Shown here: positions 14,315-57,805 of the stretch, in pieces
Numbering within the stretch: position 1 is the first letter of the stretch
How the letters are laid out: each line of letters opens with the position of its first letter
From: Actinomycetota bacterium
GTDB taxonomy: Bacteria; Actinomycetota; Acidimicrobiia; Acidimicrobiales; Ilumatobacteraceae
Assembly: GCA_043753895.1 (NCBI GenBank)
Contig: JAYUWK010000133.1
Location: forward strand, 2,644-66,643
Direction of reading: 5' to 3'
DNA: 64,000 bases
Notes under the pieces: generated by a model
The model's database searches: none
The model's input: the letters and a program-made list of their open reading frames with translations, nothing else
What the model was told of the DNA's origin: nothing
Translations under genes and position numbers: made by a program

Positions 14315-15750
14315 TGCGGCGCGTGGCGCGATGGGTTGACGCGAGCGGCAGCATGGGGCCACGAGGTCAGGTCCGGTCGTAGCGCGTCGAGAGAACGTGC
14401 TGCGATGCAGCCCTGCCAGAGCCCAGCGCCGTAGGCGATGTCGTCGAGGGCTCGAATCGCGACGTAGCGGACCGGATCGATGGGTGGGCGCTTGGTCAGC
14501 CAATCGATGGCTGCCGGGGCAGTGAACGCAACGAGCGCGACTCGACGAGCACGCTTCGAGAGCACGGCAGCCATGAGCGTGAGCGGCCACCAAGCACGCG
14601 AGAGACCCGTCGCAAGTGACCGGCCGGCGAAGATGTGACCGAGCGCCGCAAGCCGTATGGCCTCGCGCCCGCCGTCGGGGATCGTACGCAACTTGCGTGC
14701 GAGGAGTGCGGTGGTGACGGCAGCGACCGCCCCACCTACGACCGGCCAACCCGCGGCGACGGCGAGCCACGACGCAACGCTCCAAGCGCTGACCCGCACC
14801 GGAGCGAGCGCGCCCTGATGACGTTGTGCAAGCGGCGCCGCCGAGGTGCCGTAGCTGCATCGCTGCCGTGTCCACTGGATCCACGAAGTACGCGGTTGAT
14901 GACGCACCGTCACGGCCGGCTCGAAACGAATCTGCCAACCGGCTTGATCGAGACGCCAGACGAGATCCACGTCCTCGCCGACGCGCATCGCGGAATCGAA
15001 GCCGTCGACCGCCCGTAGGGCATCGACACGACACACCATCAGCGCTGCCGGCACGTAGCTCACGCGCGTGCCGGCACGTACCCGCGCTGGCTCATCACCG
15101 AGGTCAAGCGGAGAACGCGCAACCTCGTATCGAGCAAGCAACGACGAGCCCGGTGCGCTTGCGACGCGTGGTGCGACGAGCGCAACACGCGTATCGGCGA
15201 AGTGGTCGAGCAACGGTGCCAACCAGTCGGGTCCCAACTCCATATCGGTGTCCACGAAGGCGACGAGTGGAGTCTTCGCCAGCGCAAGGCCGATGGCGCG
15301 CGCGACACCGGGGCCACCGTTGACACTGGCCCGTACGACGGTGGCTCCGTCAACGTCGGCGATTGGCGTGGTACTTGCATCGTCAACAATCAGAACCGCG
15401 TCAATCGCAGCACCGCCGTGGGCCCGGCACTGTTGTACGAGTCGGCGCTGTGCGTCGGTGGATGTGTTGTAGGCCGGAATGACCACGGTTACCGTGCCTG
15501 CCGTTGACGCATCGGACGTGATCGTGCCATCGAAGGTGGGGTGCAGTACCCCGGCATCGACCAGTCGATCGAGCAGGCGGCTCACCGGCGGTGACATCTC
15601 GATCGCCTGCCCCGACTCGATGTTGTCGAGCAGGCCGGCGCCCGCTCCGGTGAGACGGAACAGCTTCAGGGGTGATCCGCCGACGAGGACGGTTCCGCTG
15701 CCGACGCGTCGGACCGAAGCATCGATGACGTAGCGGCGCGACTGGTTCAT
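14287..15750 (-). CDS. mftF: Mycofactocin-system glycosyltransferase (GT2 with a C-terminal membrane domain)
   Basis: It has the N-terminal RRVGSGTVLVGGSPLKLFRLTGAG element, a GT2 core (VTVVIPAYN...IVDDAS...VAFVDTD) and C-terminal TM helices. It is coupled to the mftE-like gene by an ATGA start/stop overlap. Confidence 0.7.
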   Translation of the reverse strand: MNQSRRYVIDASVRRVGSGTVLVGGSPLKLFRLTGAGAGLLDNIESGQAIEMSPPVSRLLDRLVDAGVLHPTFDGTITSDASTAGTVTVVIPAYNTSTDAQRRLVQQCRAHGGAAIDAVLIVDDASTTPIADVDGATVVRASVNGGPGVARAIGLALAKTPLVAFVDTDMELGPDWLAPLLDHFADTRVALVAPRVASAPGSSLLARYEVARSPLDLGDEPARVRAGTRVSYVPAALMVCRVDALRAVDGFDSAMRVGEDVDLVWRLDQAGWQIRFEPAVTVRHQPRTSWIQWTRQRCSYGTSAAPLAQRHQGALAPVRVSAWSVASWLAVAAGWPVVGGAVAAVTTALLARKLRTIPDGGREAIRLAALGHIFAGRSLATGLSRAWWPLTLMAAVLSKRARRVALVAFTAPAAIDWLTKRPPIDPVRYVAIRALDDIAYGAGLWQGCIAARSLDALRPDLTSWPHAAARVNPSRHAPHYRVEVTDS

Positions 15751-16454
15751 CGAGCCCATGCATCGAAGCAACGAATGAGGTCCTGCGCCAACTGACGAAG
15801 CAACAGGGCACCCTCGTCGGCAGTGGCTCCCGTGGGGTCGCCGAGTACGCCGCTGGGACTCACCGCCGCAACACCTCCGGAGCGCAGTGCGGGCAGTATT
15901 TCGGGAAGGGGATCGATGCGGCCAGGCGAGGCCTCATCGAGATGAACCATCTCGGGAGCAATGGCGAGCATCAACGACGTTTCGGTTCGTCCCGCGTGCG
16001 CATCGCCATCGTCGATGCGAGGCCACCATGGCAGCACGTGTCGTCCTTCGCGATTGAGTATCTCCGTCGCAGCATTCACTGCTGCCAGGTTGCCGCCATG
16101 GCCATTCACGAACACGATGCCTGCGGCCCAGTCGGCCGAGCGCACCAGTTCGATCAGAACCATCTCGAGCGCCGCGGTGCCGATGGACAACGTGCCGGCG
16201 AAACCCTTGTGCTCTCCGCTCGCCGTGATTCCGAGCGGCGGGGCGATCAGCACACGTGGTCGGGCTGTCGCCAATGCGGTCGCGACGGCGTTGGCGATGC
16301 GTGTATCGGTGTCGAGGGGCAGATGCGGGCCATGTTGTTCGCACGATCCGATCGGCAGGGCAAGCACCGTCGGTAGCTGGGACCTCTCGGCGAGATCGGT
16401 CCATGTGGCGTCCGCCAGCAAGCCGGAGTTGATCGGTCGGGCGGACTGGCTCAT
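15747..16454 (-). CDS. mftE: Creatininase-family peptidase, mycofactocin MftE-like
   Basis: It has LPIGSCEQHGPHLPLDTDTRIA, a later VNGHGGN and HAGRTETS (creatininase-fold metal ligands). It sits directly upstream of the MftF-like glycosyltransferase. Confidence 0.7.
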   Translation of the reverse strand: MSQSARPINSGLLADATWTDLAERSQLPTVLALPIGSCEQHGPHLPLDTDTRIANAVATALATARPRVLIAPPLGITASGEHKGFAGTLSIGTAALEMVLIELVRSADWAAGIVFVNGHGGNLAAVNAATEILNREGRHVLPWWPRIDDGDAHAGRTETSLMLAIAPEMVHLDEASPGRIDPLPEILPALRSGGVAAVSPSGVLGDPTGATADEGALLLRQLAQDLIRCFDAWAR

Positions 16455-19340: not shown

Positions 19341-20641
19341 CCGAAGCTCCTGAATCCGGCCCACGTATCGCGCGCCATGTCGATCCAGCGCATGCCGGCA
19401 CGTTTGCGTTCCTGTTTGAGAATGTGGCGCACACCGGGTTTTGGATCGGGATTGTCGACACGGAACATGCGCTCGGCTATCGCGTTGGCCATTTCCGGGT
19501 ACCCGTGTTGCACGCGATCCGACAGCACCAACGCAGGGGCTCGCCGCAACTTCTTGTGGTCCTTGAGTACGAACGTGGCCTCGAGCCGGCGACGGTAACC
19601 GCGCAACCCGTCGACAGACGTGTCGCCGCGATCGATGGCCTCGATGGCTGTCTGTCCGGCATACATGCCGCTGGCCATCGCGAAGTTGACACCCTCGAGC
19701 CAGATACCCGCGGCGAGGCACAACGCGGCCGCATCGCCGGCAAGGAGCAGCCCGTTGCCCGCAAGCGTGGGGATCATCTTGTAGCCGGCTTCGGGAATGA
19801 GGTGTGCGGAGTACTCCTTCAACTCGGCACCCTCGACCAGTGGGGCAACGGCCGAGTGCAGCTTCATCGCCGCAAGGAGTTCCTCGGGTCGGCGTTTCTG
19901 AGCGGCGAGCTTGGGTAGTTTGAGCACGAGCCCGATCGCGATGGTGTCGAGGTTGGTGTAGATGAACCCACCGCCGTTCACGTTGCCCGTACAGCCGACA
20001 ATTTCGATGTCGACACCCTCGTTGCCGCGCACGCCGAAGCGCTCGTCGATCACATGCTTGGGGAGCGCGAGCGTCTCTTTCACGCCGAGCGTGTAGTTGG
20101 CCGCGTTGACCTCGCCGTAGAGGCCCTCCTGCTTGGCGAGGAAGCTGTTCACGCCGTCACACGCGATGACGATAGGGGCGCTGAGATCGCCCTCGGGTCG
20201 GTCGGTGCTCACGCCGCTCACATGCCCCTTGGCGTCGTGCAGCAGCGATGTGACCGTGGTGCTGCAGATGAGCTCGGCGCCTGCTTGCACGGCCTGACCG
20301 GCGAGCCAGTTGTCGAAGTCGGGACGATATGCGGTGGCGCCGTTGTAGGGCGGGTGGCCCCACGCCTCGGTACGGAAGTCGATGTTCAACGCCTGCGTAT
20401 CGGTCATGATCATTGTCGATCGACGCGTGATCCAGCGTTGTATCGGTGCCTCGAGCCACCACTCGGGAATGATCTGATCGAGGATGCGTGGATAGATCAC
20501 CCCGCCGTACATGTTCTTGCTGCCTGGAAACGGACCGCGCTCGATGAGGGCCACGCGCTTGCCCGATCGTGCCAGGGTGAGCGCGGCGATGGAACCGGCG
20601 GGACCGGCGCCCACCACGATTGCGTCGAAGTCGTCAGCCAT
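19337..20641 (-). CDS. fixC: FAD-dependent ETF:quinone oxidoreductase-like protein FixC
   Basis: It has the N-terminal dinucleotide fold FDAIVVGAGPAGSIAALTLARSGKRVALIERG. Its length and position between etfA and fixX fit the call. Confidence 0.8.
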   Translation of the reverse strand: MADDFDAIVVGAGPAGSIAALTLARSGKRVALIERGPFPGSKNMYGGVIYPRILDQIIPEWWLEAPIQRWITRRSTMIMTDTQALNIDFRTEAWGHPPYNGATAYRPDFDNWLAGQAVQAGAELICSTTVTSLLHDAKGHVSGVSTDRPEGDLSAPIVIACDGVNSFLAKQEGLYGEVNAANYTLGVKETLALPKHVIDERFGVRGNEGVDIEIVGCTGNVNGGGFIYTNLDTIAIGLVLKLPKLAAQKRRPEELLAAMKLHSAVAPLVEGAELKEYSAHLIPEAGYKMIPTLAGNGLLLAGDAAALCLAAGIWLEGVNFAMASGMYAGQTAIEAIDRGDTSVDGLRGYRRRLEATFVLKDHKKLRRAPALVLSDRVQHGYPEMANAIAERMFRVDNPDPKPGVRHILKQERKRAGMRWIDMARDTWAGFRSFG

Positions 20642-21551
20642 GATCTTCCAATCGTTGCAGAAGTTTGCTGACGACAGCGTTGGCGTCGCTCACGATGGCG
20701 AGGTCGGCGAGTTGCATCATCGGACAGTGTGGATCAGTGTTGACACTGACGATGTGATCCGGCTGGCCAAGACCGCTGGTGTGTTGCACTGCGCCGCTGA
20801 TACCGAACGCGATGTAGAGCTGCGGATCGACCACCACACCGGTGGTGCCGATCTGGCGCTCGTGACCGACCCAGCCGCGATCGGTGATGACGCGCGTGGC
20901 ACCCATCGATGCGTCGAGCAACGCCGCCACCGTCGCGAGTTCGGCAAACGCAGCTTGCGTGGTGAGGCCGGCACCGCCGCCGAGGATGCGCGGGGATTCG
21001 GCGAGGTCCATGGTCGCGACGTCGGGTGGGAGGACCTCGATGACGCTGGCGTCTCGGGGTGCGCCTACTTGCGGCTCGAATTCGACGATCGTGACATTGA
21101 TTTTGCGGGTGTCTGTTGGTGCAGTTGGGTCCACTCCGCGAACGCCGGGTTGCAGTGTGGCGACGAACGAAGCCGCTGGCACGATCTCGTTGATCACCAG
21201 GCCGCCGTTACGGGCGAGTTCGATGCGGTGCGGCCTGACCGAGATGGCTCCGGCCCACAGATCGCGCTGCAGTGCGGCGGCGATGCGCGGCGCCAGGTCT
21301 CGGCCGTCGGGCGAGGCGGGCAGCACCACGTGCGCTTCGTGAGCGAGTTGCGCAGCAAGGAGCGTGGACCACGCGCCCGGCGCATAGTCGCCGGCTTCGA
21401 TGGTGATGATCATCGAAGCGGTGCCATCGACCTCGCCGGCCGCTATGGCGACACTCGATCCGATGAGTAGCACGCGGCCATCGCACTCGGCAACCGTTTC
21501 GAGGCCGCCTGCAGGCAGGGCTCCTTCTCTGACGGGTACAACGGCAAGCAT
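20634..21551 (-). CDS. etfA: Electron transfer flavoprotein alpha subunit (FixB/EtfA-like)
   Basis: It has the C-terminal FAD-binding region (GATRVITDRGWVGHERQIGTTGVVVDPQLYIAFGISGAVQHTSG). Confidence 0.8.
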   Translation of the reverse strand: MLAVVPVREGALPAGGLETVAECDGRVLLIGSSVAIAAGEVDGTASMIITIEAGDYAPGAWSTLLAAQLAHEAHVVLPASPDGRDLAPRIAAALQRDLWAGAISVRPHRIELARNGGLVINEIVPAASFVATLQPGVRGVDPTAPTDTRKINVTIVEFEPQVGAPRDASVIEVLPPDVATMDLAESPRILGGGAGLTTQAAFAELATVAALLDASMGATRVITDRGWVGHERQIGTTGVVVDPQLYIAFGISGAVQHTSGLGQPDHIVSVNTDPHCPMMQLADLAIVSDANAVVSKLLQRLEDHG

Positions 21552-22171: not shown

Positions 22172-22558
22172 TCAGGCGCGACCCATGATGCGGTCGACGA
22201 CAATCTCGATGGCCACCCGATCGACTCGCTCTCCGGGCTGGCGGTACCGGTTAGCGTACCCTGCGACGGCGGCGGCCACGCTCGACGCATCGGTGGCGAG
22301 ACGGACCTGGCCTTCGAGGGTGAGCCATCGGCCTCCATCGACCTGCGACACAGCAGCCCGGCCGCCTCGCGCGGCGTTGCGGGCCTTGATCGATGGCGCG
22401 AACGTGATGACCCGCACGAGACGATCGGCAGGGGAGTAGCTGAAACCCACCGGAACGACATGAGGACTGCCGTCGGCACGCAGTGTGGTGAGCGTGGCGA
22501 GGTGGCGCTCGGTGAGAAACGTAAGTACCTCGTCAGAGAGGTTGGCAGGATCGATCAT
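22172..22558 (-). CDS. PPOX-class (pyridoxamine 5'-phosphate oxidase-like, probably F420-dependent) split-barrel protein
   Basis: It has FLTERHLATLTTLRADGSPHVVPVGF, a typical PPOX split-barrel N-terminus. The ATG at 22558 overlaps the stop of the upstream permease gene by 1 nt. Confidence 0.6.
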   Translation of the reverse strand: MIDPANLSDEVLTFLTERHLATLTTLRADGSPHVVPVGFSYSPADRLVRVITFAPSIKARNAARGGRAAVSQVDGGRWLTLEGQVRLATDASSVAAAVAGYANRYRQPGERVDRVAIEIVVDRIMGRA

Positions 22559-25104
22559 CAGTCGGTTCCGATGGCTTTCAAGAGGTCGAGCTTGGTTGCG
22601 CGCCACGCGGGGATGACCGCGGCCAAGACTCCGACGACGAATGCAGTCACGACGATGACCACGATGGCCGTAGTGGGTATGGCGTACTTCGAGAGGCCTG
22701 AGTCTCGCAGAGCGACGATCACGATGTAGCCGAGCACGAGACCGAGCACCACCCCGACGATTGCTCCGTAGAGCGATGTCAGCACACTCTCCCAGCGCAC
22801 CGTGGTGCGCACCTGCGACCGGGTCATACCGACCGCGCGTAACAGGCCGATCTCGCGTCGACGCTCGTACACGGCGAGCAGCATCGTGAGCACGATGCCG
22901 AACACGGCAATGATCACCGAGAGCGCGAGCAGGCCGTAGATGAAGAACAGGCTGCGATCGATGATGTCGCTGCGACCGTCGATGAATTGTGATCGATTCT
23001 GCAATGTGCCGATGCCGTAGGTCTTGATCGATGCGTCCACCGCGACGCGGAACTTTTTGTCGGACACGCCCGGCGCCTTGGTCATGAACACGAAGCCGGC
23101 GAGGTTGCTCACCGAGGTGCCCTTGAGAAGGTCGCGGTGCACCACTCGCGCCTGCGCAAGGTCGCTCGACGCATAGATGCCCTGCACGGTGACGGTCACA
23201 TCAGTTTGGCCCACACGTAAACCAACCGTGGACCCGACGTCGAGCTTGGCCCGCTTGGCTTCGCCGGAACTGACCAGAATGCCCTTCGGCGTGAGCGACG
23301 CGAACGAGCCCTGCAGGAACTTGTAATCGAGAATGCCGATGGCTGTTTCTGGGTTCACGGTGGTTGCGAAGAACCCTTTTTGCGTGTCGCTGTACTGCAA
23401 CCGCGCAAAGCCCAAACCAGTCGCTGCACCGACCTCGGGCAGCGTGTTGAGTTCGTCGACAAAGCTCTGGCTGAAGCTCAGCGAGCCGCCGTTAGACGAA
23501 TTGATCACGTACTCGCCCAGGAACTGCTGGCCGATGGTGTCGCGTAGTTGTTGCTTGATCGACGCTGCGAACACGCTGGCGCCCGTGACCAACGCGACGC
23601 CGATGAGCACCGGTGCGGCGGTGCGCGCGGTGCGGCGCGGGTTGCGCTGCACGTTCGCCCGACTCATGCCGCCGGTGATACCACGGAAGCGTTCGACCGG
23701 CGCTCCCAACACGCGGGCGATGGGGTTGGCCATCGTGGGGCCGAGCAGCAGGATGCCCACGAAGATGGCGACCACGGCGACCCCAAGCAGAATGCCTGCC
23801 GCACCGACGATCACGGCGATGATCGCGGCCACGCCGAGTGCGATGAATCCGAACGCCGCGAGCACACGGGTTCGGTTGCTGCGCACCTGCTCGAACGCCG
23901 ATTCGCTCATCGCTGCGACGGGGGGCACGCGTGCCGCCGAGAACGCGGGTACCGCTGCCGCGACCAGTGTGGTGATGATGCCGGCGATCACGGTGACCAC
24001 GACCGTGCCCGCGGTGATGACCAATCCGCGCGACGGCACGCCCAACCCCGCACCATTCAGCGCAACCTGAATCCCGATGGCGAGACCGGCACCGGCAACG
24101 AGACCGAGCGCCGAGCCGAGCACTCCGATGACGGAGGCCTCGGTGAGCATCATCCATGTGACCTGTCGGCGACTTGCGCCGATGGCGCGCAGCAGGGCGT
24201 TTTCGCGTCGCCGTTGCGCGGCAGTGATCGAGAATACGTTGTAGATCACGAAGCAGCCCACGCCCAACGCGATGAAGGAAAAGATGGACAGGAAGATCGT
24301 GAAGAAGCCGAGGCCCTTCTGAATTTCGGTCTGGCTCTGTGCGGTGATCTCTGCACCGGTGAGGGCCTGCATCTGATTGAGTCCGGGAGCGGCGCTCATG
24401 GCTGCCTGCACGCGCCGTGCCAGCTCGGTGTCGGTGACGGTGCTATCGCCGCGGATGAGTACGGCATCGATGAAACCGGGCTTGGCCACGAACTCCATTG
24501 CGGTATCAGTGTCGAACAGCGCCCACGTGGCGTCGCCGGGCGTGGCCACGGTGTTGTAGCGGGCGATACCGACGAGGGTGAACGTGCGCGACCCAGCCTC
24601 GGCGTTGATCTTCACTGTGTCGCCGAGTACGTAACCGCCATCAGACGCGGTCTGGTCGTCGAGCACTACCTCGCCGCCTCCGCTGGGTGAGCGACCACTC
24701 GTAAGCTTCCATACCGAGAGATCACCGGAGTTCAGGGTGCCGCCCGAGGTGGATCGGGTGGTGCGCTCGATTGGCTTACCGTTCTTGCCGATGACCACGG
24801 CGTCGCCTTGCACCAAGGCCTGCGCGTCGCTGACGCCCCGCACAGCTGCCGCGACCGCGACCGCATCGATAGGTACCTTGTCGCGCACCTCGAAACCGAA
24901 TGCGGTTTCGACCGTGTTGCTGGACTGCACATAGGCGTCGACTTTCTCGAACGACTTCGCAAAGATCGCGTCGAACGTGCCCTCGAGCGTGTCGCGAAAC
25001 ATGAAGGTGCCCGACAAGAACGCGGTGCTGACGATGATCGCCAGTGCGGTGAGCACGATGCGCCCAAAGCGGGCGGTCACGTTTTTGAAGGCGAGGCGCA
25101 GCAT
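22558..25104 (-). CDS. ABC transporter permease, FtsX/MacB type with two FtsX domains (paralogue 1)
   Basis: It is 848 aa. The N-terminus MLRLAFKNVTARFGRIVLTALAIIVS is typical of the family. Two 4-helix FtsX modules follow, each after a large extracytoplasmic domain. Confidence 0.85.
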   Translation of the reverse strand: MLRLAFKNVTARFGRIVLTALAIIVSTAFLSGTFMFRDTLEGTFDAIFAKSFEKVDAYVQSSNTVETAFGFEVRDKVPIDAVAVAAAVRGVSDAQALVQGDAVVIGKNGKPIERTTRSTSGGTLNSGDLSVWKLTSGRSPSGGGEVVLDDQTASDGGYVLGDTVKINAEAGSRTFTLVGIARYNTVATPGDATWALFDTDTAMEFVAKPGFIDAVLIRGDSTVTDTELARRVQAAMSAAPGLNQMQALTGAEITAQSQTEIQKGLGFFTIFLSIFSFIALGVGCFVIYNVFSITAAQRRRENALLRAIGASRRQVTWMMLTEASVIGVLGSALGLVAGAGLAIGIQVALNGAGLGVPSRGLVITAGTVVVTVIAGIITTLVAAAVPAFSAARVPPVAAMSESAFEQVRSNRTRVLAAFGFIALGVAAIIAVIVGAAGILLGVAVVAIFVGILLLGPTMANPIARVLGAPVERFRGITGGMSRANVQRNPRRTARTAAPVLIGVALVTGASVFAASIKQQLRDTIGQQFLGEYVINSSNGGSLSFSQSFVDELNTLPEVGAATGLGFARLQYSDTQKGFFATTVNPETAIGILDYKFLQGSFASLTPKGILVSSGEAKRAKLDVGSTVGLRVGQTDVTVTVQGIYASSDLAQARVVHRDLLKGTSVSNLAGFVFMTKAPGVSDKKFRVAVDASIKTYGIGTLQNRSQFIDGRSDIIDRSLFFIYGLLALSVIIAVFGIVLTMLLAVYERRREIGLLRAVGMTRSQVRTTVRWESVLTSLYGAIVGVVLGLVLGYIVIVALRDSGLSKYAIPTTAIVVIVVTAFVVGVLAAVIPAWRATKLDLLKAIGTD

Positions 25105-25143
25105 TGCGATGGGCCTAACGCTGCCTGTGATGACGGGTGGTGG

Positions 25144-27687
25144 TCATGTGGTGGCGATGGCCTGCAGGATGTCGGATTTTGAGGCACGACGTGCCGGCCA
25201 CCAGGCCGCGACGATTGCGAAGACCACGGCAGCGACGGCGAAGATTCCGATCGAGACGTACGACACGCTGAAGATCGTGAGGCCCTGATCGCCGAGCGCG
25301 CGGACCACGATCCAGCCGAGCGCGAGTCCGAGCAGCGTGCCCATGATCGCGCCGAGTACGGCGGTCACGATGGCCTCCCAACGAACACTGTCGCGCACCT
25401 GTTTGCGGGTCATACCGATGGCACGCATCAAGCCGAGCTCGCGCCGACGTTCGTACACGGCGAGCAGCAGGGTGAGCACGATGCCGAGCACCGCGATGAA
25501 TACGGCCATGCCCAACAGTGCATAGATGAAATTGAGAATCGGTGTGACCTGTTCAACCTGAGCGTCGATGAAAGCGGTGCGGGTTTGCACCTTGGCTGTG
25601 GGGTACTTGTCGGTGACGGTCTTCACGGCCGTGGTGGCGTCGGCGTCGGAAACGCCCGGCTTTGTCTGCGCGAAGATCTGGATGTCGAACAGGGTTGCGC
25701 CACGTCCGTCGAACAGGGAACGGTCGACGATCACGTTCCCGAAAGCTTTCGACTCGTAGACACCGGCCACTGTCAACGTGGCGGTGGATTGATCGAGGAA
25801 GGACACCGCAAGTTGGCTGCCTACTCGCAAGCCGTCGCGGTCGGCTTTGCCCTTGGAGACCAGGACCGTCGTGTTGTTCAGCCCTGACCAGCCGCCGTCG
25901 ACGAACGTGAAGTTGAACAACTTGGCCGCATGCGTGGCGTCGAGGGTGAAGACGCCGGTGGCCTTGGGCGTGCCGTCTTTGACGACCTTGATTTGGGCGA
26001 TTCCCAAGCCGGCAGCGTCGCTGATCTCGGGGAGCTTGTTGAGGTCGTCGGTGAGCGTGGTGGGCAGCCCGCCGAAGCCCTGACCGTCGCTGGTGCTCAC
26101 CGCAAAGTTTCCGGTGAACTGCTTGCCGATGGTCTCGCGGATGGAACTCTGTAAGGAGGAGCCGATCGTGGAGACGCCGATGAGGAACGCGAGGCCGATA
26201 CCGAGTGCCGCGGCGGTGAGCGAGGTGCGCTCGGGGCTACGTGCGGCATTACGAACGGCGATCTCGCCGGTGACGCCCTTGATCGCGCGCAGCGGGCGCG
26301 TCAGAGCGGTAGTGACCGGCCCAACGGTGACAGGACCGAGCGCAATCGCTGTAATGAAGAGCGACGGGACGCCGAGTACCAGCCAAATGGCGGCACGGTT
26401 GAGGCCGAGAACGACCCCAACTACCGAGAATGCGACGAAAACAGCACCGATGACGATGCGTCGGAGCGACAGACCGGAGCGATCGATGCTGACATCGCGC
26501 ATCGCGGCAAGCGGTGAGACTCGCCCGGCACGAATGGCGGGGAGTGTGGCGCAGAGCACCGTCACGACGAGTCCCACGATGAGCGTGATCACGAACGAGC
26601 GCGAGTTGACGGTGAGCGCTGTGTCGGACGGCCCGCTACCGAGCTTCTTGAGGATCCCGAGAATGGTCGTTGCGAGCACGACGCCTCCGCCGAACCCGAG
26701 CAGGCTGCCGACGACACCCACGACGCCCGCCTCGACGAACAACGACCGCACCACTTGGCCACGGTTGGCGCCGATGGCGCGCATGAGCGCGCTCTCCTGC
26801 TGGCGTTGGGCTGCAGTGATACGGAACACGTTGTAGATCACGAAACAACCAACGAGCAATGCGATCGCGGCGAAGATGGTGAGCACTTTGCTGAACAGGT
26901 TGAAGAACTTGGCGACCGAGTTCTGCGTCTCTTTGGTGATCTCAGCGCCGGTGAGCACCTGCACCGATTGACCCGTGAGCGCCTTTTGGATCGTGGCCTT
27001 CAACTGCGTGTCGGTGAGAGAACCATCGCCGCGCACGATGACAGAGTCGATCTTGCCGGCTTCGCCGATCACGAAGTCCTGAGCTGTCGCGAGGTCGAAC
27101 AACGCCCATGTGGCCGAGCCGGATGTGTCGGATCCTGCGAAGGTGACGATGCCGACCACGGTGAACGGTCGAGCACCGGCTTTGGCCGTGACGGTGACCG
27201 AGTCGCCGAGCGAGATTTTGCCTTCCTTGGCCGATCGTTTGTCGATGACGACTTCGGTCGAGCCTGCTGCCGGACGACCCTCGGCCAGCTTCCATGGCGA
27301 GCTCTTCGCGCCGGTGAACACGCCGCCGTACTTGGGTGGGCCGTCGATGCCGATGGGCTTGCCGGACGCGGTGGAAATGCGGGCGAAGCTCTGTACATCG
27401 CCTCGTGCTTCTGTGACTCCGGGAATTGCGGCGACCTCGGCGATCACCGAATCCAGAAGGCGCCCGCGGGTGTCGGCTCCGAAGTCGCCCTCGATCACGT
27501 TGGAGGAACGCACGAACGCATCGGTCTGCGCGTAAGCAGTGGCGAAGAGACGATTGATGCTCGCGTTGATGGTGTCGCTGAATACGAACACGCCGCTCAG
27601 GAACGCGCAGCTGGCAATGACTGCGAGCGAGGTGAGCAGCAGCCGGCCCTTTCGGGCCAGCACGTTCTTTAGTGAGATTCGGAACAT
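25144..27687 (-). CDS. ABC transporter permease, FtsX/MacB type with two FtsX domains (paralogue 2)
   Basis: It is 847 aa and collinear with the downstream paralogue (MFRISLKNVLARKGRLLLTSLAVIAS...). Its start is 2 nt from the stop of the ATPase gene. Confidence 0.85.
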   Translation of the reverse strand: MFRISLKNVLARKGRLLLTSLAVIASCAFLSGVFVFSDTINASINRLFATAYAQTDAFVRSSNVIEGDFGADTRGRLLDSVIAEVAAIPGVTEARGDVQSFARISTASGKPIGIDGPPKYGGVFTGAKSSPWKLAEGRPAAGSTEVVIDKRSAKEGKISLGDSVTVTAKAGARPFTVVGIVTFAGSDTSGSATWALFDLATAQDFVIGEAGKIDSVIVRGDGSLTDTQLKATIQKALTGQSVQVLTGAEITKETQNSVAKFFNLFSKVLTIFAAIALLVGCFVIYNVFRITAAQRQQESALMRAIGANRGQVVRSLFVEAGVVGVVGSLLGFGGGVVLATTILGILKKLGSGPSDTALTVNSRSFVITLIVGLVVTVLCATLPAIRAGRVSPLAAMRDVSIDRSGLSLRRIVIGAVFVAFSVVGVVLGLNRAAIWLVLGVPSLFITAIALGPVTVGPVTTALTRPLRAIKGVTGEIAVRNAARSPERTSLTAAALGIGLAFLIGVSTIGSSLQSSIRETIGKQFTGNFAVSTSDGQGFGGLPTTLTDDLNKLPEISDAAGLGIAQIKVVKDGTPKATGVFTLDATHAAKLFNFTFVDGGWSGLNNTTVLVSKGKADRDGLRVGSQLAVSFLDQSTATLTVAGVYESKAFGNVIVDRSLFDGRGATLFDIQIFAQTKPGVSDADATTAVKTVTDKYPTAKVQTRTAFIDAQVEQVTPILNFIYALLGMAVFIAVLGIVLTLLLAVYERRRELGLMRAIGMTRKQVRDSVRWEAIVTAVLGAIMGTLLGLALGWIVVRALGDQGLTIFSVSYVSIGIFAVAAVVFAIVAAWWPARRASKSDILQAIATT

Positions 27688-27688
27688 G

Positions 27689-28432
27689 TCATTCCCCGAA
27701 GCGCTTCATACGATCGAGTACGCGGTCCGCTGTGGGATCCTGCATCTCGTCGACGATGCGGCCATCGGCCAGGAAGATGACGCGATCGGCGTAGCTCGCG
27801 GCAACCGGATCGTGGGTGACCATCACGATGGTTTGTCCCAATTCGTTCACGGCGAGGCGCATGAACGACAAAATCTCAGCACCGGTGCGGCTGTCGAGGT
27901 TGCCCGTGGGCTCGTCGGCGAAGATGATGGTGGGCCGGCTGGCAAGCGCGCGGGCCACGGCAACACGCTGCTGCTGGCCGCCCGACAACTCGCTCGGCCG
28001 GTGGGTGAGACGGTCGCGCAGACCAACGGTGTCAATGACCCGGTTGATCCAGGCTTCATCACCCTTGGAGTTGCCGAGCAGCAACGGGAGGCGGATGTTC
28101 TCTTCGGCCGAGAGCGTGGGGATGAGGTTGTAGGCCTGAAAGATGAAGCCGACCTTCTCGCGGCGCAACTCGGTGAGTTCTTTGTCCTTGAGCGTGGCGA
28201 GGTAAGTGTCGCCGATGTACACGGCGCCCGATGTGAGGCCGTCGAGACCGGCAAGGGTGTGCATGAGGGTGGACTTGCCCGAACCGGAGGGGCCCATGAT
28301 GGCGGTGAATCTGCCGGCTTCGAACGCGACGGTCACGCCGTCGAGGGCTCGTACTTCGCTATCGCCTGAGCCGTAGAACTTGGTGGCATCGACGGCTCCG
28401 GCTGCAGCGGTGGCGGTGGGGGCTTCAGTCAT
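27689..28432 (-). CDS. ABC transporter ATP-binding protein (MacB/LolD-type)
   Basis: It has Walker A GPSGSGKST, signature LSGGQQQRVAVARAL, Walker B IIFADEPTGNLD and an H-loop VTHD. The start is at ATG 28432 (MTEAP) or ATG 28459. Confidence 0.9.
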   Translation of the reverse strand: MTEAPTATAAAGAVDATKFYGSGDSEVRALDGVTVAFEAGRFTAIMGPSGSGKSTLMHTLAGLDGLTSGAVYIGDTYLATLKDKELTELRREKVGFIFQAYNLIPTLSAEENIRLPLLLGNSKGDEAWINRVIDTVGLRDRLTHRPSELSGGQQQRVAVARALASRPTIIFADEPTGNLDSRTGAEILSFMRLAVNELGQTIVMVTHDPVAASYADRVIFLADGRIVDEMQDPTADRVLDRMKRFGE

Positions 28433-28812
28433 CCCGTAGTTGTATCGGAAAATCGGCAATTACCGATCCAGAACAGGGTGGATTCGTTACCTGGACCGGT
28501 GGGTAGGCGTCTCGTCTCAGCCGCCGGACAGGGCCTCGATGTACTGCACGATCAGTGCCACCTCAGCCGGAGTAAGCGACTTCGTCGCTGCCTTGGCGCT
28601 GCGTGGCCGTCAGACTGACGGTTGAGGCGTCGCCAGAGTCGGGTGCACACGACGCGAGCACGGCACCAGCCAACAAGGCAGTGACCACGGACGCGAAGAC
28701 GATACGTCGCTGTACCACGGCGGCAAACTATCGCAGCGGTGCAGGGTGCGCGGAGACGCGGGATTGAAACCCGTGGCTCGCGCCGGGGTGCCGATGCCGT
28801 ACGATCTGCCCA

Positions 28813-32271: not shown

Positions 32272-32654
32272 CGCGGGTACAGCCGACCTCGGCACGCTTG
32301 ATTGACCTGCGCCCACCGCTCGCCGCTCGAATCGACGACCTGTCGCGCAACGCTGCGGCCGCTGCACCGGGTCGCACCGGTGAGCTGGCGCGGGTTCGCG
32401 TGCGTCAGTTGCTCGGGGTCGGAGACGAGACCTTGCCCACCGATCTCGATCCCGCTGAACTCGCGGCGATGGCGGTCGTCGAACAATTCGTCATTGATGT
32501 ACACGGCCTCGACGATGCCACCTTCGCCGCACTCTGCGCGTACTACACGCCGGCCGAGCAGATGGGTCTGTTGTTCCATCTCGCGCTACTCGATGGGTTC
32601 ACTCGCCTACAGATCGTTGCTGGCGAGTCAATCGAAGAACAGGGACACCACTGA
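32268..32654 (+). CDS. CMD/AhpD-like helical domain protein lacking a CxxC motif
   Basis: The ATG overlaps the cyclase stop (ATGA). The C-terminal half (DDATFAALCAYYTPAEQMGLLFHLALLDGFTRL) looks like the helical CMD fold. Confidence 0.45.
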   Translation: MTRVQPTSARLIDLRPPLAARIDDLSRNAAAAAPGRTGELARVRVRQLLGVGDETLPTDLDPAELAAMAVVEQFVIDVHGLDDATFAALCAYYTPAEQMGLLFHLALLDGFTRLQIVAGESIEEQGHH

Positions 32655-33178
32655 TGGCTACCACGCCACGAATGCCGTCTGCCTTCGATGAGGAGACGCC
32701 GAGTTATGGCGGCATGTTGTCGCACCAGCCCGAACTCGTCGGCGCGTACGGCGTGCTCTATTCCGAGTTCTGGAGTCGCGGTGTTGTCGATCAGCCCACC
32801 AAGGAAGTGATCCGGCTGCGCAATGCGCGCATCACCGACTGCGGGTATTGACGCAATGTGCGCTTCGCGGTCGCGAGGCAGGAGGGACTCACCGAGGAAC
32901 TCGCCAACATGGTCGACGACAACTTCGAATCGAGTGAGCTCGAGCCTCGACACAAAGCGGCAGTGGTGTTCGCTGATGCTTACCTCGGCACCAACGGACC
33001 TCCCACCGGCGACGCACGGTCGTTCATCTCGGCGCACTTCGACGGTGATGAGATCGCCGAGATGGGTATCGGCATGGCCCTCTTCCATGGCTTCAGCAAG
33101 CTCCTCATTGCCGTTGGTGCCGAGCCAGAGGAGATGGACGTCACGATCTTGCGCACGCCGGGTTCGCCGCGCCCCTGA
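32654..33178 (+). CDS. Carboxymuconolactone decarboxylase (CMD)/AhpD-like protein with an in-frame TGA at 32849..32851, read as selenocysteine (C-G-Y-U motif)
   Basis: Track ORFs 32654..32851 and 32858..33178 are in the same frame and separated only by TGA-CGC-AAT. The joined reading is ...EVIRLRNARITDCGY[TGA]RNVRFAVARQEGLTEEL..., a full-length CMD domain. A hairpin starts 11 nt after the TGA. Confidence 0.6.
32862..32879 (+). promoter_or_regulatory. SECIS-like hairpin downstream of the TGA at 32849
   Basis: The hairpin is G-CUUCGC [GGUC] GCGAGG-C: 7 bp including one G-U pair, with apical loop GGUC. Confidence 0.5.
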
Positions 33179-33190
33179 CCGGACCCACCG

Positions 33191-33691
33191 ATGAGCACCG
33201 CACAGCCCGGACCCTGTTATGCGACCGGCCTGATCGTCGGCCGATTCAATCCACCGCACCTGGGTCATTCGTTCATGATCGAGTGGGCGGCACAACGCGC
33301 CGAGCGCCTCGTGGTGTTCGTGAATACGCGCGATGGCGAGTTGGTGCCCGGCGAGCTCCGCGCTGCATGGCTCGCCGATCTGCACTCGCACGTGACGGTG
33401 GTGGAGTTGCGTCATGACCTCGACAACGACTTTGCCGACGAGGAACTCTGGGCCAAGTGGATGGCGCTGTTCCGGTCGCGATGGCCGCACGAAATCGGGC
33501 CACATGCGGTGTTCAGTAGCGATCCCTACGTCAGCGAGCTCGCCGAGCGATTCGGCGCCGAACCCGTGGTGGTGGATGCGGATCGCACGGCTGTGCCCAT
33601 CAGCGCGACCCAGATACGCGAAGCGCCAGCCGACCACCTCGATCGGCTGGCGCCTGCAGTACGAGAGTGGGTTGAGTCGAACCTGTGCTGA
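33191..33691 (+). CDS. Nucleotidyltransferase of the cytidylyl/adenylyltransferase superfamily (NadR/NMN adenylyltransferase-like)
   Basis: It has the HxGH-type motif GLIVGRFNPPHLGHSFMI and a later ISATQIR (ISSTxxR-like) motif. Confidence 0.65.
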   Translation: MSTAQPGPCYATGLIVGRFNPPHLGHSFMIEWAAQRAERLVVFVNTRDGELVPGELRAAWLADLHSHVTVVELRHDLDNDFADEELWAKWMALFRSRWPHEIGPHAVFSSDPYVSELAERFGAEPVVVDADRTAVPISATQIREAPADHLDRLAPAVREWVESNLC

Positions 33692-33725: not shown

Positions 33726-34361
33726 TTACTTGCCGGGCTGGTGCAGCACGCGCAGGTAGGGCTTCACGGTAGTCCAGCCCTGCGGGAACAACTGCTTTGC
33801 CTCATCGTCGCTGACCGACCCGCCGATGATCACGTCGTCACCATCGGTCCAGTTGGCTGGCGTGGCGACTTTGTACTTGGCGGTGAGTTGCAGGCTGTCG
33901 ATGACCCGCAGGATCTCTTCGAAGTTGCGACCGGTAGAGGCCGGGTAGGTGATCTGCAGCTTGACCTTCTTGTCCGGCCCGATGACGAACACGGAGCGAA
34001 CCGTCATGGTGTCGCTGGCATTGGGGTGGATCATGTCGTACAGGTTGGCAACGGTCTTGTCGGTGTCGCCGATCATCGGAAAGTTCACGGGAGTGCCTTG
34101 AGTCTCGCCGATGTCGCTCTCCCACTTGAGGTGGCTCTCGACGGAATCGACCGACAGGCCGATGACCTTCACGTTGCGCTTATCGAACTCGGGCTTGATC
34201 TTGGCCACGTAGCCGAGCTCGGTGGTGCATACCGGCGTGAAGTCCTTGGGATGGCTGAACAGCACGCCCCAGCTGTCGCCGAGCCAGTCGTGGAAGTTGA
34301 TGTCGCCCTGCGTGGTGGCGGCGTTGAAGTTGGGTGCGGTATCGCCAAGACGAACGGTCAT
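33726..34361 (-). CDS. Peroxiredoxin, 1-Cys (Prx6-like) type
   Basis: The ATG at 34361 is preceded by AAGGAG. It has the motif WGVLFSHPKDFTPVCTTE, and its 211-aa length is typical for 1-Cys Prx. Confidence 0.9.
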   Translation of the reverse strand: MTVRLGDTAPNFNAATTQGDINFHDWLGDSWGVLFSHPKDFTPVCTTELGYVAKIKPEFDKRNVKVIGLSVDSVESHLKWESDIGETQGTPVNFPMIGDTDKTVANLYDMIHPNASDTMTVRSVFVIGPDKKVKLQITYPASTGRNFEEILRVIDSLQLTAKYKVATPANWTDGDDVIIGGSVSDDEAKQLFPQGWTTVKPYLRVLHQPGK

Positions 34362-34555: not shown

Positions 34556-35485
34556 ATGAGCATCAGACCGCACATCTACGAGATCTACATCAAAGCCACG
34601 CCGCAGCAGGTGTGGCAGGCGATCACCGATCCCGAATACACGAGCCGCTACTTCTACGGCACCCGCCTCGAGACCGATGGCGGCGTCGGCGACGGCTACC
34701 GCTATGTGGGAGACGATGGCGCCCCGGCGATCGAGGGCCTGATCGAAGCCACCGAGGTCGCCAAGCGCCTCGTGATGACCTTCCGGTTCGTGTACGAAAC
34801 AAGCCTGGCCGAAGAGCCGCCGAGCCGTGTGGAGTGGGTACTCACCCCGGCAGGCGAACTCACTCGGGTCACGCTGCGTCACGGCGACCTGTTGAAGAGC
34901 CCGCGCACGTGGGAGCACGTGCGCATGGGCTGGGTGGCCATTGTCGATGGCCTCAAGACGCTGCTCGAAACCGGCGAGAGCATGGGCGACATCGACGACC
35001 CCGAGGCAGCGAAACCTGCGGAGGATCCCGAAGGCGAGTGGCACCGTTCGCAGGGCGTCACGGCGAACAACGGCACGTGGGAGTGGCTGCGCAAGCCCGA
35101 CGCCGAACGCACTGCCGACGACGAAGAGGCAATGACCCTGTCGGCGTACGCGGCCGCGTATCACTGGGCGCGTGCTGCACGACGCGTCCCCGAAAATGTG
35201 GCTCGTGCCGAATGGTTGATTTCACGGGTGTGGGCAGTGCGCGGCAACGGCGCGCTGGCGTTGCACCACGGCGATCGCTGCATGGCTGCGTGCTCAGCCG
35301 CGAACTTGGCCGACTTCGATCTGGCCTACGCGCACGAGGCTCGCGCCCGCGCGTTGGCATGCTTGGGTCGCACGGACGAAGCGGTTGCAGAACGCGCGCT
35401 CGCTGCTGCAGTGCCGATCGCCGACGCCGAGGACCGCCACATCGTCGTTGCCGACCTCGCCGCTGAGCTGTGGTTCGGAGTGTGA
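34556..35485 (+). CDS. SRPBCC (AHSA1/START-like) domain protein with a helical C-terminal extension
   Basis: The N-terminus IYEIYIKATPQQVWQAITDPEYTSRYFYG is typical of SRPBCC family proteins. The C-terminal ~150 aa are Ala-rich and helical. Confidence 0.6.
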   Translation: MSIRPHIYEIYIKATPQQVWQAITDPEYTSRYFYGTRLETDGGVGDGYRYVGDDGAPAIEGLIEATEVAKRLVMTFRFVYETSLAEEPPSRVEWVLTPAGELTRVTLRHGDLLKSPRTWEHVRMGWVAIVDGLKTLLETGESMGDIDDPEAAKPAEDPEGEWHRSQGVTANNGTWEWLRKPDAERTADDEEAMTLSAYAAAYHWARAARRVPENVARAEWLISRVWAVRGNGALALHHGDRCMAACSAANLADFDLAYAHEARARALACLGRTDEAVAERALAAAVPIADAEDRHIVVADLAAELWFGV

Positions 35486-36000
35486 ACCGGCCGATCACGA
35501 TCGTTGGTATCTGTGGCAGCCTGCAGGCCGGTTCGTCGAACCTCGCACTGTTGCACGACGCCGCAGCGCTGATGCCGATCCATGTCGACTTCACCTTCTT
35601 CGAGGGCCTCGGTGACATTCCTCACTTCAATCCCGATCACGAGGCCACTGGCGCGCCGGGTCAGGTGATCCAGCTTCGGGAAATGTTGCAAGCCGCTGAC
35701 GGAGTGATCATCGCCTCGCCGGAGTACGGCTTCTCGTTGCCGGGTTCGTTGAAGAACGCCATTGACTGGATCATCGGCACGGGCGAGCTGGCGGGCATGC
35801 CGGTTGCGGTCACGGCCTCAGTTGCCAGTGCCGGGCGCGGCCGACGCGGGCTGCAGGCGTTGCTCGTGCCCCTCGGTGCGGTGGGCGCCGTGGTGGTGGG
35901 GGGCGAGACGATCGTGCGCGGACCGGCCGCAGCCGATGCACTTGGCCGGCTCGTGGCAGCGCTCATCGCAGCGGTCGATGAACGGGCATTGGTCGAGTGA
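35482..36000 (+). CDS. NAD(P)H-dependent FMN reductase family protein
   Basis: It has ITIVGICGSLQAGSSN and IIASPEYGFSLPGSLKNAIDW. The GTG at 35482 overlaps the upstream stop (GTGA); an alternative GTG lies at 35470. Confidence 0.8.
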   Translation: MNRPITIVGICGSLQAGSSNLALLHDAAALMPIHVDFTFFEGLGDIPHFNPDHEATGAPGQVIQLREMLQAADGVIIASPEYGFSLPGSLKNAIDWIIGTGELAGMPVAVTASVASAGRGRRGLQALLVPLGAVGAVVVGGETIVRGPAAADALGRLVAALIAAVDERALVE

Positions 36001-36046: not shown

Positions 36047-36385
36047 ATGAGCGTTGTGGTCACCCTTGCCGATCTTCCCGTCGCGATCGATGTGCAGATC
36101 GGATGGTGTTATCTCCTCACCGTGTCCGACGACGCCGAGGCCCGCGTCGTTGCCATCGCCCCGGTCTGGGATCATACGGGTACCTACCTCCACGCAGAGG
36201 TGGGGCGACGTACGGCCGCCAACGTGGCCTTGCATCCGAAGGTCTCACTCGTGTGGCCGCCGGCCGCAGCCGATGGATACAGCCTCATCGCCGATGGCGT
36301 CGCTGCCGTCGATGGCACCATTGTTCGGTTCGAGCCGATGAGTGCGGTACTCCACCGCCCAGCGGTGCAGGCACCACAGTCGTGA
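36047..36385 (+). CDS. Small hypothetical protein, possibly PPOX-like split barrel
   Basis: It is 112 aa and its stop overlaps the next gene's GTG. There is only a weak family resemblance. Confidence 0.35.
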   Translation: MSVVVTLADLPVAIDVQIGWCYLLTVSDDAEARVVAIAPVWDHTGTYLHAEVGRRTAANVALHPKVSLVWPPAAADGYSLIADGVAAVDGTIVRFEPMSAVLHRPAVQAPQS

Positions 36386-37032
36386 ACGACGAACAACTCT
36401 CGGCCGCCCTGGCCGACGAGCGTCTCGCCTTGGCCGACCTGCTCGAATCGCTGTCGTCCGAGCAACTGCGAGTCTGGTCGTTGTGCGCCGATTGGCGTGT
36501 ACACGACCTTGCCGCCCATCTCACGGCGCTGTTCAACGTCTCGATGCCATCGTTGCTGATGCGGGTCGTGAGAAATGGATTCTCTGTCACCAAGTCGTCG
36601 AAACAGATCACTGCCGAGTTGGCCGCGCGGCCCATCGCCGAGATCGCTCAGCAGCTACGCGACAACGCGTCGAATCGGAAGCACCCTCCCACGCTGGCAA
36701 TGGCGCCGCTGGCCGAAGTCATCGTGCACGGCGAGGACATCCGCCGTCCGCTCGGCATCACGCGCGAGATCCCCTTCGAGCGTGTCTCGGCAGTAATGGA
36801 TTTCATCACGGGAGGCCGCGCAATCGGCTTCCTGCCGGCATCACGAATTCGCGGACTGCGGTTCACTGCCACCGATGGCGACGGTATTTGGGGCAGCGGT
36901 CAGATCGTGCATGGCCCTGCGCTGAGCCTGCTGATGGGCGCGATGGGTCGACGGGTTGCGTTCGCCGACCTGGGCGGCTCGGTCGAGGTGTTGTCCACTC
37001 GGCTGCAGGGCAAAGTGAAGCGCATCGAGTAG
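36382..37032 (+). CDS. DinB-fold, mycothiol-dependent maleylpyruvate isomerase-family (TIGR03083-like) protein
   Basis: The N-terminus LADERLALADLLESLSSEQLRVWSLCADWRVHDLAAHL is typical of this actinobacterial family. It has a GTGA overlap with the upstream gene. Confidence 0.65.
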   Translation: MNDEQLSAALADERLALADLLESLSSEQLRVWSLCADWRVHDLAAHLTALFNVSMPSLLMRVVRNGFSVTKSSKQITAELAARPIAEIAQQLRDNASNRKHPPTLAMAPLAEVIVHGEDIRRPLGITREIPFERVSAVMDFITGGRAIGFLPASRIRGLRFTATDGDGIWGSGQIVHGPALSLLMGAMGRRVAFADLGGSVEVLSTRLQGKVKRIE

Positions 37033-37062: not shown

Positions 37063-37542
37063 TCAGAGGTACTGCTCCAATTGGGAGGCAATTTCGTCCG
37101 GGGTGACCATGGGGCTGAACCGGGCCACTACGGCACCTGAGCGATCGATCAGGAACTTCTCGAAGTTCCATGTGATGCTGTTCGTTTCAGCCACTCCGGG
37201 CTGTTCGGTCCGGAGCCATTGATAGAGCTCGCAGGCACCGTCGCCATTCACCTCGATCTTGGAAAAGATCGGGAAATTGGCGTCGTATTTCGATGTGGCG
37301 AACTCGAGGATCTCTGCGTCGGTTCCGGGCTCTTGTGCGCCGAATTGATTACACGGGAACGCAAGCACCGTGAAGCCGCGAGCGGCGAAGTCCTGCTGGA
37401 GCGTACGCAGACCTGCGTACTGAGGCGTGAGGCCTCAAGCGCTCGCAACGTTGACGATGAGAACCACCTGATCGCGGAACCGGTCGAGTGCAACCGGATC
37501 ACCACCGATCGAGGTCATGGCGAGGTCATACAGATGTGACAT
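37063..37542 (-). CDS. Glutathione peroxidase with an in-frame TGA at 37435..37437 at the peroxidatic position, read as selenocysteine
   Basis: Track ORF 37063..37368 and the tail of ORF 37435..37980 share a frame. The joined reading is [35 protein letters not shown][TGA][37 protein letters not shown]...WNFEKFLI. This is the complete GPx fold with the TGA where Cys/Sec sits in NVASxCGxT. Confidence 0.7.
37403..37420 (-). promoter_or_regulatory. SECIS-like hairpin downstream of the GPx TGA
   Basis: On the minus strand it reads GUACGCA [GGUC] UGCGUAC, a perfect 7-bp stem with a GGUC loop, starting 14 nt after the UGA. Confidence 0.6.
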
Positions 37543-57746: not shown

Positions 57747-57805
57747 CTCTTGAGCGGTGGCCCCGTTGGTTTGACATCGTCGGCGAGTGACTCAATACTG
57801 GCTTG

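Follow-up and report, generated by a model that had tools for sequence, protein, structure and literature searches.

AhpD-like selenoproteins, which carry selenocysteine (Sec, U) in a CxxU motif, were first reported in 2005 from the Sargasso Sea, with 27 sequences that have a predicted bacterial Sec insertion sequence (SECIS) (PMC1088965). In the Global Ocean Sampling (GOS) survey of 2008, the group 'AhpD-like 1' (COG2128) is the fourth most abundant selenoprotein family, with 299 sequences, and the group 'AhpD-like 2' (PF02627), with 70 sequences, is commoner in non-marine samples (PMC2398784). Several AhpD-fold selenoprotein families are listed in a 2026 review (PMC13188914). The present analysis concerns a stretch of 64,000 nucleotides (the window) of contig JAYUWK010000133.1, from an Acidimicrobiia bacterium of the Ilumatobacteraceae, and in it the region 32654..33178, in which an in-frame TGA divides two neighbouring open reading frames (ORFs). 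This region is very probably a single gene that encodes a Sec-containing protein of the AhpD fold and has a functional SECIS. Proteins of this kind have been known since 2005, and the gene is neither rare nor categorically new. A first-pass annotation, made from the sequence alone, had stated that Sec-containing AhpD-like proteins are reported in bacteria, which is correct (PMC1088965, PMC2398784), and had called them rare, which does not hold in view of the 299 GOS sequences. What is new beyond that annotation is a putative partner subunit, encoded directly upstream, and an active-site variant with Arg in place of His, which is found in Sec and Cys forms.

The proton relay of the AhpD-like protein PA0269 of Pseudomonas aeruginosa is formed by Glu36, Cys48, Tyr50, Cys51, and His55, and that of Mycobacterium tuberculosis AhpD by Glu118, Cys130, His132, Cys133, and His137. 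The two Cys and the His are reported to be the same in all six solved members that were compared (PMC3141380). Sec use in the lineage of the window has only just been reported, for marine Actinomarina, which belong to Acidimicrobiia and have selA, selB, selC, and selD in all 84 complete genomes (bioRxiv 10.64898/2026.04.03.716425).

The ORFs 32654..32851 and 32858..33178 are in the same frame, and TGA-CGC-AAT (32849-32857) is the sole gap between them. The joined ORF has 174 codons and contains ...RLRNARITDCGY-U-RNVRFAVARQEGL..., so that the continuity of frame and the length given in the first-pass annotation are both correct on re-reading of the sequence. TGA ends 40 of the 49 predicted genes in the window; it is thus an ordinary stop here, and a genome-wide reassignment of TGA is ruled out. 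In public data the gene is split. On a 6.2 kb Logan contig, which was recovered with the partner protein as query, the gene calls cut it at the TGA into genes of 65 and 89 amino acids, and a protein search finds database entries of ~103-108 amino acids that all start with V/MRFAVARQ, directly 3' of the TGA column. Such starts are the signature of gene callers that halt at TGA, and the usual mis-annotation as two fragments, which had been anticipated, is seen in the Logan calls and in the many database entries that are C-terminal fragments. A contig look-up returned no contig on record that encodes the 106-amino-acid C-terminal ORF.

These split gene calls and short database entries would also be expected if the TGA were a real stop, in which case the locus would hold two small genes or a pseudogene with a nonsense mutation, and the fact that no Sec machinery was found within the window agrees with this too. 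However, the same TGA is retained in 54 independent assemblies that span ~40-90% protein identity, and purifying selection acts in frame on both sides of it, with dN/dS (the ratio of nonsynonymous to synonymous change) of 0.06-0.24 upstream and 0.10-0.13 downstream in comparison with six relatives. Each fragment by itself is an incomplete fold, both are required for the domain, and a covarying hairpin occurs only with the TGA. A real stop is thus very improbable.

The joined protein, in which U was written as C, scores 26.6 bits with the Pfam carboxymuconolactone decarboxylase (CMD) model PF02627 (gathering score 23), in a match over residues 36-82 that runs across the TGA, while the N-terminal fragment alone has 11.8 bits and the C-terminal fragment has no match. 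Both fragments therefore lie in one domain, as the first-pass annotation proposed. The family profile matches PA0269 (2ijc, 2o4d, 7xw1) in the PDB with an E-value of 2e-15 over profile positions 22-151, which cover both fragments. In this alignment, tdCgyCrnvRF stands on NGCAYCVNMH and the TGA column falls on Cys51 of PA0269, and in the full-length homologues (~170 amino acids) the TGA column is the second Cys of TDCGYCRNVRF; the two alignments agree with the earlier placement of the TGA at the second Cys of CxxC. AlphaFold2 models the joined protein with a mean local confidence (pLDDT) of 86.9 and a predicted template modelling score (pTM) of 0.83. In a Foldseek search of the PDB with this model, the 37 best-ranked matches all have the AhpD/CMD fold, with template modelling (TM) scores of ~0.65 when normalised by the query and 0.77-0.79 when normalised by the target. 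The protein belongs to the AhpD fold both by its PF02627 match above the gathering threshold and by these structural matches.

Relatives were collected by a scan of one genome per species, which gave 80 loci, and these with the window make 81 sequences that were read as DNA. The redox codon is TGA in 54 of them and TGC or TGT in 27, so that the Cys/Sec alternation for which the first-pass annotation suggested looking among orthologues is present, and the in-frame UGA stands at a conserved redox Cys. TGA forms come from Acidimicrobiia-type metagenome-assembled genomes (MAGs) of freshwater, soil, and sea; Cys forms come from Binatia, Myxococcota, Litorivivens, streptomycete relatives, and other Acidimicrobiia. 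The neighbour-joining tree has one large clade with TGA only, and four more TGA forms (L051, L053, L054, and L076) are nested among Cys forms.

Just 3' of the UGA is a stem-loop with a small apical loop that contains G. Its arms, 5' GCUUCGC and 3' GCGAGGC, form seven pairs, including one G-U pair, and the spacer from the TGA is 10 nt to G32862; the first-pass annotation described the same hairpin and its GGUC loop with a spacer of 11 nt, which was counted to C32863. In the 35 distinct non-marine TGA sequences, 99.6% of the stem cells are paired, and in Cys sequences 53% of the same cells are paired, no different from shuffles. All seven pairs are present in 43 of 44 non-marine TGA sequences (the remaining one has six of seven) and in 0 of 27 Cys sequences. 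The third-position entropy of codons +4 to +9 is 0.00-0.52 bit in Sec forms vs 0.39-1.77 bit in Cys forms, and the flanking codons of Sec forms have mostly ~0.9-1.9 bits. Synonymous sites are frozen precisely over the stem, and only in Sec forms.

The stem also shows compensatory exchanges, one pair having changed from G-C to A-U in 14 sequences and another from C-G to U-A in 1, and no slid register of the stem comes close to it in pairing. The G-C to A-U exchange couples Ala72 to Thr (GCG to ACG) with Ala74 to Val (GCG to GUG), which yields FTVVE/K in place of FAVAR/K; in Cys forms Ala74 is 96% conserved. In L009 the exchange (TTC/GCG to TTT/GCA) is synonymous at both sites. Of the 44 non-marine TGA sequences, 41 have a GGUC loop and 3 have AGUU. 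Ten marine loci are without this hairpin. They have a different one, placed 7 nt further 3', whose CGUGA loop is invariant; 90% of its cells are paired, and three of its pairs covary. All 54 TGA copies have G-U at loop positions 2-3. The four nested TGA forms have the first hairpin, which is missing from their Cys sisters L056 and L074, so the hairpin tracks the TGA and not phylogeny. Conservation of the hairpin in orthologues with the TGA, on which the first-pass annotation had made its proposal depend, is accordingly found, and the UGA carriers show compensatory changes that the Cys carriers lack. The hairpin is selected as RNA, and for this the comparative evidence is decisive.

The two strands of the window together hold only three hairpins with a 7-bp stem and a GGUC tetraloop, of which two stand directly after redox-Cys TGAs. 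The second of these two belongs to a glutathione peroxidase (GPx) gene (37420..37403, minus strand; z = -2.4), and its loop is indeed the one of the Sec gene, as had been noted before. The GPx gene of one relative (L002) has the same TGA and one mismatch in the stem. The third hairpin (58143..58160, plus strand) lies in the N-terminal half of an AhpD_rel_CFYUT (CFYUT) gene, not after a TGA, and is probably a chance occurrence. The CFYUT gene was reached by following this third hairpin. With U read as C, its product passes NCBIfam NF041238 with 259.7 bits (cutoff 175) over model positions 1-356 of 357, and 17 nt after its TGA there is a hairpin (58504-58522) with a perfect 7-bp stem and the loop CGUGC. 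Both further TGA genes, GPx and CFYUT, thus have 7-bp hairpins with xGUx loops. A scan of the window for TGA-interrupted ORFs with hairpins gave mainly off-frame noise, and its length filters passed over the GPx and CFYUT genes.

It is also conceivable that the UGA is read through without Sec, by a near-cognate Trp or Cys tRNA helped by the hairpin or by SelB-independent local recoding. Downstream structures are generally able to promote stop-codon read-through, and the 64 kb window yielded no Sec machinery. On the other hand, the G-U dinucleotide in the loop of the E. coli-type SECIS is recognised by SelB, and this G-U is kept in all 54 copies and in both other TGA genes of the window, one of which belongs to a curated (seleno)protein family. 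A tRNA-Sec with anticodon TCA is present near an orthologue, at L039 16528..16623, 6.4 kb downstream of the TGA form, and scores 65.6 bits with Rfam RF01852 (gathering score 47); it adjoins Tad/type II secretion-like genes. Furthermore, the recoded site is the redox Cys that is Sec in known CxxU AhpD-like selenoproteins (PMC1088965, PMC2398784). Read-through without Sec is therefore highly improbable, if slightly less so than a real stop, and the tRNA-Sec, the other TGA genes, and the Actinomarina genomes give good indirect support for Sec decoding in this organism.

Several points weigh against a Sec-encoding gene or against parts of its interpretation. A search that covered the 64 kb window and the flanks fetched for close relatives, and not the rest of the genome, found no selA, selB, selD, or tRNA-Sec. 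ARAGORN finds no tRNA in the window, hence no selC there, and tblastn with approximate E. coli SelA, SelB, and SelD queries against the window and the 80 loci gives only generic GTPase matches, in four Cys-type loci. The folding energy of the single sequence is no better than that of shuffles (z = 0.14) in this GC-rich DNA, so the case for the hairpin rests on comparative evidence, and thermodynamic stability was dropped as an argument. An Rfam scan of the whole window gives no family match; this is expected and carries no information, since a general model for bacterial SECIS elements is not part of Rfam. With the curated NCBIfam models for AhpD-type (seleno)proteins, the protein stays below every cutoff. 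A catalytic role of the Arg in the active site, as well as the link of the Sec protein to a neighbouring 1-Cys peroxiredoxin (Prx), is something that we infer, and the synteny with this Prx, which is seen in one clade only, could be inherited gene order.

In the favoured reading, that of a Sec-encoding gene, the mRNA 10 nt downstream of the UGA would fold into the 7-bp GGUC hairpin as the ribosome nears the codon, and this hairpin would act as a bacterial SECIS of the fdhF type. By the established bacterial mechanism, SelB-GTP with Sec-tRNA(Sec) would bind the loop and deliver Sec to the A site. The product would be a thiol/selenol oxidoreductase with the active site E51...C63-G-Y-U66...R70, in which Sec takes the place of the second AhpD Cys and Arg that of the proton-relay His. 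It would most likely pair with the product of the upstream partner gene, an AhpD-fold paralogue that has lost the redox motif. The pair may transfer reducing equivalents in peroxide defence, plausibly by re-reduction of the 1-Cys Prx or by weak direct reduction of hydroperoxides.

The relay residues of the window protein are E51, C63, Y65, U66, and R70. The Glu stands 12 residues before the first Cys (E51/C63), and a KE is conserved in all full-length homologues; the redox motif is C63-G-Y-U66 here and C-x-x-C in the Cys forms. The position four residues after the second Cys has Arg70 and not His. The first-pass annotation had remarked on this Arg as an oddity. It is indeed there, and at least 90% of the family has it; since Sec and Cys forms alike carry it, it is a trait of the subfamily and not a consequence of Sec. 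The replacement of His by Arg is probably the reason why the protein stays below the cutoff of TIGR00778 ahpD_dom (22.4 bits, cutoff 27.8). TIGR01926 (peroxidase-related enzyme), the model given for 'AhpD-like protein' (PMC13188914), scores 24.3 bits vs a cutoff of 81.8, and relatives score 22-38 bits with it. The scores are also far below the cutoffs for NF053654 YciW-related (30.2 vs 310 bits), NF041047 GSU3128 (25.5 vs 110), and NF041238 CFYUT (11.5 vs 175). Identity of the family with the CFYUT family was considered and rejected, the hhalign probability being 22.6%.

The partner gene, which the first-pass annotation does not mention, is predicted from the gene overlap to be translationally coupled with the Sec gene. 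Its stop codon TGA (32652-32654) and the ATG of the Sec gene overlap (TGATG), as do its own ATG at 32268 and the stop of the cyclase/AAA/TPR gene before it (ATGA). The partner protein has no match in Pfam. A profile of partner orthologues matches the catalytic family with hhalign (probability 99.1%, E 1e-18, 144 columns), and the stretch equivalent to CxxC is partly deleted in it. The partner stands directly upstream of the catalytic gene in ~55 loci of Sec and Cys types. In-frame fusions of the partner and catalytic domains are found in L040, L049, L062, L066, and L080, which are Cys forms, and in L076, a Sec form. In the marine clade the partner is fused C-terminally to the catalytic Sec domain (~295 amino acids), so that the domain order is the reverse of the other fusions.

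The best-scoring relatives in a 50%-identity library are also two-domain fusions, of 327-357 amino acids. The model of one natural fusion, P0033, has pLDDT 93.2 and pTM 0.92, a confidence that implies a fixed two-lobe arrangement. Its best whole-chain matches in the PDB are to human Sestrin2, with query-normalised TM scores of 0.54-0.62, a root-mean-square deviation of ~10 A, and 11-15% identity. By the model of these fusions, the Sec protein and its partner would form a two-lobed heterodimer. A more specific proposal is that the pair is an obligate heterodimeric 'split sestrin-like' selenoenzyme, made of a catalytic E...C-x-Y-U...R subunit and a degenerate scaffold paralogue, and is the dedicated reductant of the neighbouring 1-Cys Prx in freshwater and soil Acidimicrobiia. 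This full proposal is possible and still rather doubtful.

The gene upstream of the partner is of an adenylate-cyclase/AAA/TPR regulator type, and it has this position in ~20 loci (Table 1). The overlap of stop and start codons and this synteny suggest that it is co-transcribed with the Sec pair. Downstream, the 1-Cys Prx is convergent with the Sec gene and matches the NCBIfam peroxiredoxin model NF009668 with 217 bits (cutoff 211). It adjoins the pair in ~35 TGA-type loci, including L026, L029, and L038, which have no adenylyltransferase-like gene; Cys-type and marine loci do not have it beside the pair.

The Prx is a candidate substrate, and its re-reduction is the most likely role of the Sec protein, a role that is favoured by analogy with the AhpD-AhpC pair. 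There is nevertheless a considerable chance, not far below even, that the selenoprotein acts on another substrate, such as a hydroperoxide directly, the disulfide of some other protein, or the substrate of a reductive reaction of the Bmp8 kind, and that the synteny with the Prx is coincidental. The Prx gene is convergent and not co-transcribed, and its synteny is confined to the TGA-type Acidimicrobiia clade, with none in Cys-form or marine loci. The relay His of AhpD is replaced by Arg (PMC3141380), and the CMD fold hosts other thiol chemistries, the debrominase Bmp8 being among the Foldseek matches. However, the Prx stays beside the pair down to ~52% identity, even in the loci where the intervening cytidylyltransferase-like gene is missing, and it is a true 1-Cys type with one Cys, which needs an external reductant. 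The AhpD-AhpC pairing is moreover the paradigm for the fold (PMC3141380).

Table 1. Features of the window and of related loci; positions are counted from the first letter of the window.
Feature	Position	Strand	Details
Sec gene (AhpD/CMD-fold selenoprotein, 174 residues; very probable)	32654..33178	+	ATG 32654; Sec codon 66; true stop TGA 33176-33178
In-frame UGA, predicted U66	32849..32851	+	same column in homologous loci: 27 with Cys, 53 others with TGA
Redox motif C63-G-Y-U66	32840..32851	+	with E51 (32804-32806) and R70 (32861-32863): E-x11-C-x-Y-U-x3-R
Hairpin resembling a bacterial SECIS	32862..32879	+	stem 32862-32868/32873-32879, loop GGUC 32869-32872; within codons R70-Q76
Partner gene, degenerate AhpD-fold paralogue without CxxC, 128 amino acids	32268..32654	+	hhalign against the catalytic family
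Adenylate-cyclase/AAA/TPR regulator-type gene, zinc-ribbon, 1152 residues	28813..32271	+	Pfam Guanylate_cyc, AAA_16, TPR_12
Nicotinamide mononucleotide (NMN)-adenylyltransferase-like gene	33191..33691	+	
1-Cys peroxiredoxin, single Cys, convergent with the Sec gene	33726..34361	-	Pfam AhpC-TSA and 1-cysPrx_C
AHSA1-domain protein	34556..35485	+	
NADPH-dependent FMN reductase	35470..36000	+	
PNPOx-like protein	36047..36385	+	
MDMPI_N protein	36391..37032	+	
Sec-type glutathione peroxidase	37542..37063	-	VASA-U-GLTPQY, TGA 37437..37435, Pfam GSHPx E 3e-40
AhpD_rel_CFYUT (seleno)protein	57803..58801	+	332 residues, ...ARE-C-F-Y-U-T..., TGA 58484-58486
Marine Acidimicrobiia loci	L046, L047, L050, L052, L057, L061, L063, L064, L067, L068		C-terminal partner fusion and CGUGA hairpin

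Other genes of the window include mycofactocin genes at 14287..16454 and 20634..21551, both on the minus strand. Their scores are 405 bits (cutoff 280) for the MftF glycosyltransferase, 290 bits (cutoff 172) for the MftE peptidyl-dipeptidase, and 378 bits (cutoff 240) for the mycofactocin-associated EtfA, and a FixC-like flavoprotein gene adjoins the EtfA gene. Two neighbouring genes of FtsX-type ABC permeases (~848 amino acids) lie in the same frame at 22558..27687 on the minus strand, with TGA 25144-25146 between them. They look like a tandem duplication and not a read-through case because each has its own start codon. An ABC ATPase gene is found at 27689..28459.

The subfamily falls outside all curated NCBIfam selenoprotein models, and the public gene calls that were examined break it at the TGA. 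A dedicated model would mend the annotation in many Acidimicrobiia MAGs, since 54 of the 81 sequences have the TGA and fragments are numerous among the 150 best-scoring representatives. The GPx, CFYUT, and AhpD-like genes would make three Sec genes in 64 kb, which indicates substantial selenium use in the peroxide defence of this lineage. The family is a clean natural case of a SECIS that forces an amino-acid co-substitution (Ala/Ala to Thr/Val), and it also shows the replacement of a SECIS between clades. The partner subunit and the change of the relay His to Arg are testable hypotheses on the function of AhpD-fold enzymes. If the heterodimer and the Prx do form a module, it would be a peroxide-defence module outside every curated family model.

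Among known systems, Sestrin2 consists of two AhpD-like halves, and its likeness to the P0033 fusion is one of architecture only and implies no role in leucine sensing. The CFYUT proteins of NF041238 share the CxxU motif with the window protein, and the CxxC columns are in register in their C-terminal part, with weak profile similarity. CFYUT is a single chain of 332 residues, whereas the window locus has two genes. In the SECIS of E. coli fdhF, G23 and U24 of the loop are the determinant for SelB. The window hairpin is like this element in being a stem-loop within the coding region with a GGUC apical loop. Its loop G-U stands 22-23 nt from the U of the UGA, one nucleotide closer than in fdhF, and its upper stem has no bulged U, unlike that of fdhF.

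M. tuberculosis AhpD (E118, C130-S-H-C133, H137), the reductant of AhpC, resembles the window protein as a CxxC oxidoreductase of the same fold, and in the window as well a peroxiredoxin gene is nearby. It differs in being a distant match (Foldseek E > 1) with another chain topology (PMC3141380), without Sec and with His instead of Arg, and the peroxiredoxin near the window gene is of the 1-Cys type and on the opposite strand. The closest solved structure is PA0269/AhpD (2ijc, 2o4d, 7xw1), which is alike in fold (Foldseek TM 0.65/0.79), in the spacing of the Glu, and in C-x-Y-C. PA0269 has Cys and not Sec, His55 where the window protein has Arg70, and a single gene with no partner paralogue.

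The window protein differs from the AhpD-like and CMD-like CxxU selenoproteins of metagenomes by its Arg in place of the relay His and by its separate partner subunit, and among curated models it passes PF02627 alone. It has in common with them the fold, Sec at the second Cys, abundant Cys homologues, a SECIS hairpin directly after the UGA whose small apical loop includes G, and routine mis-annotation (PMC1088965, PMC2398784, PMC13188914).

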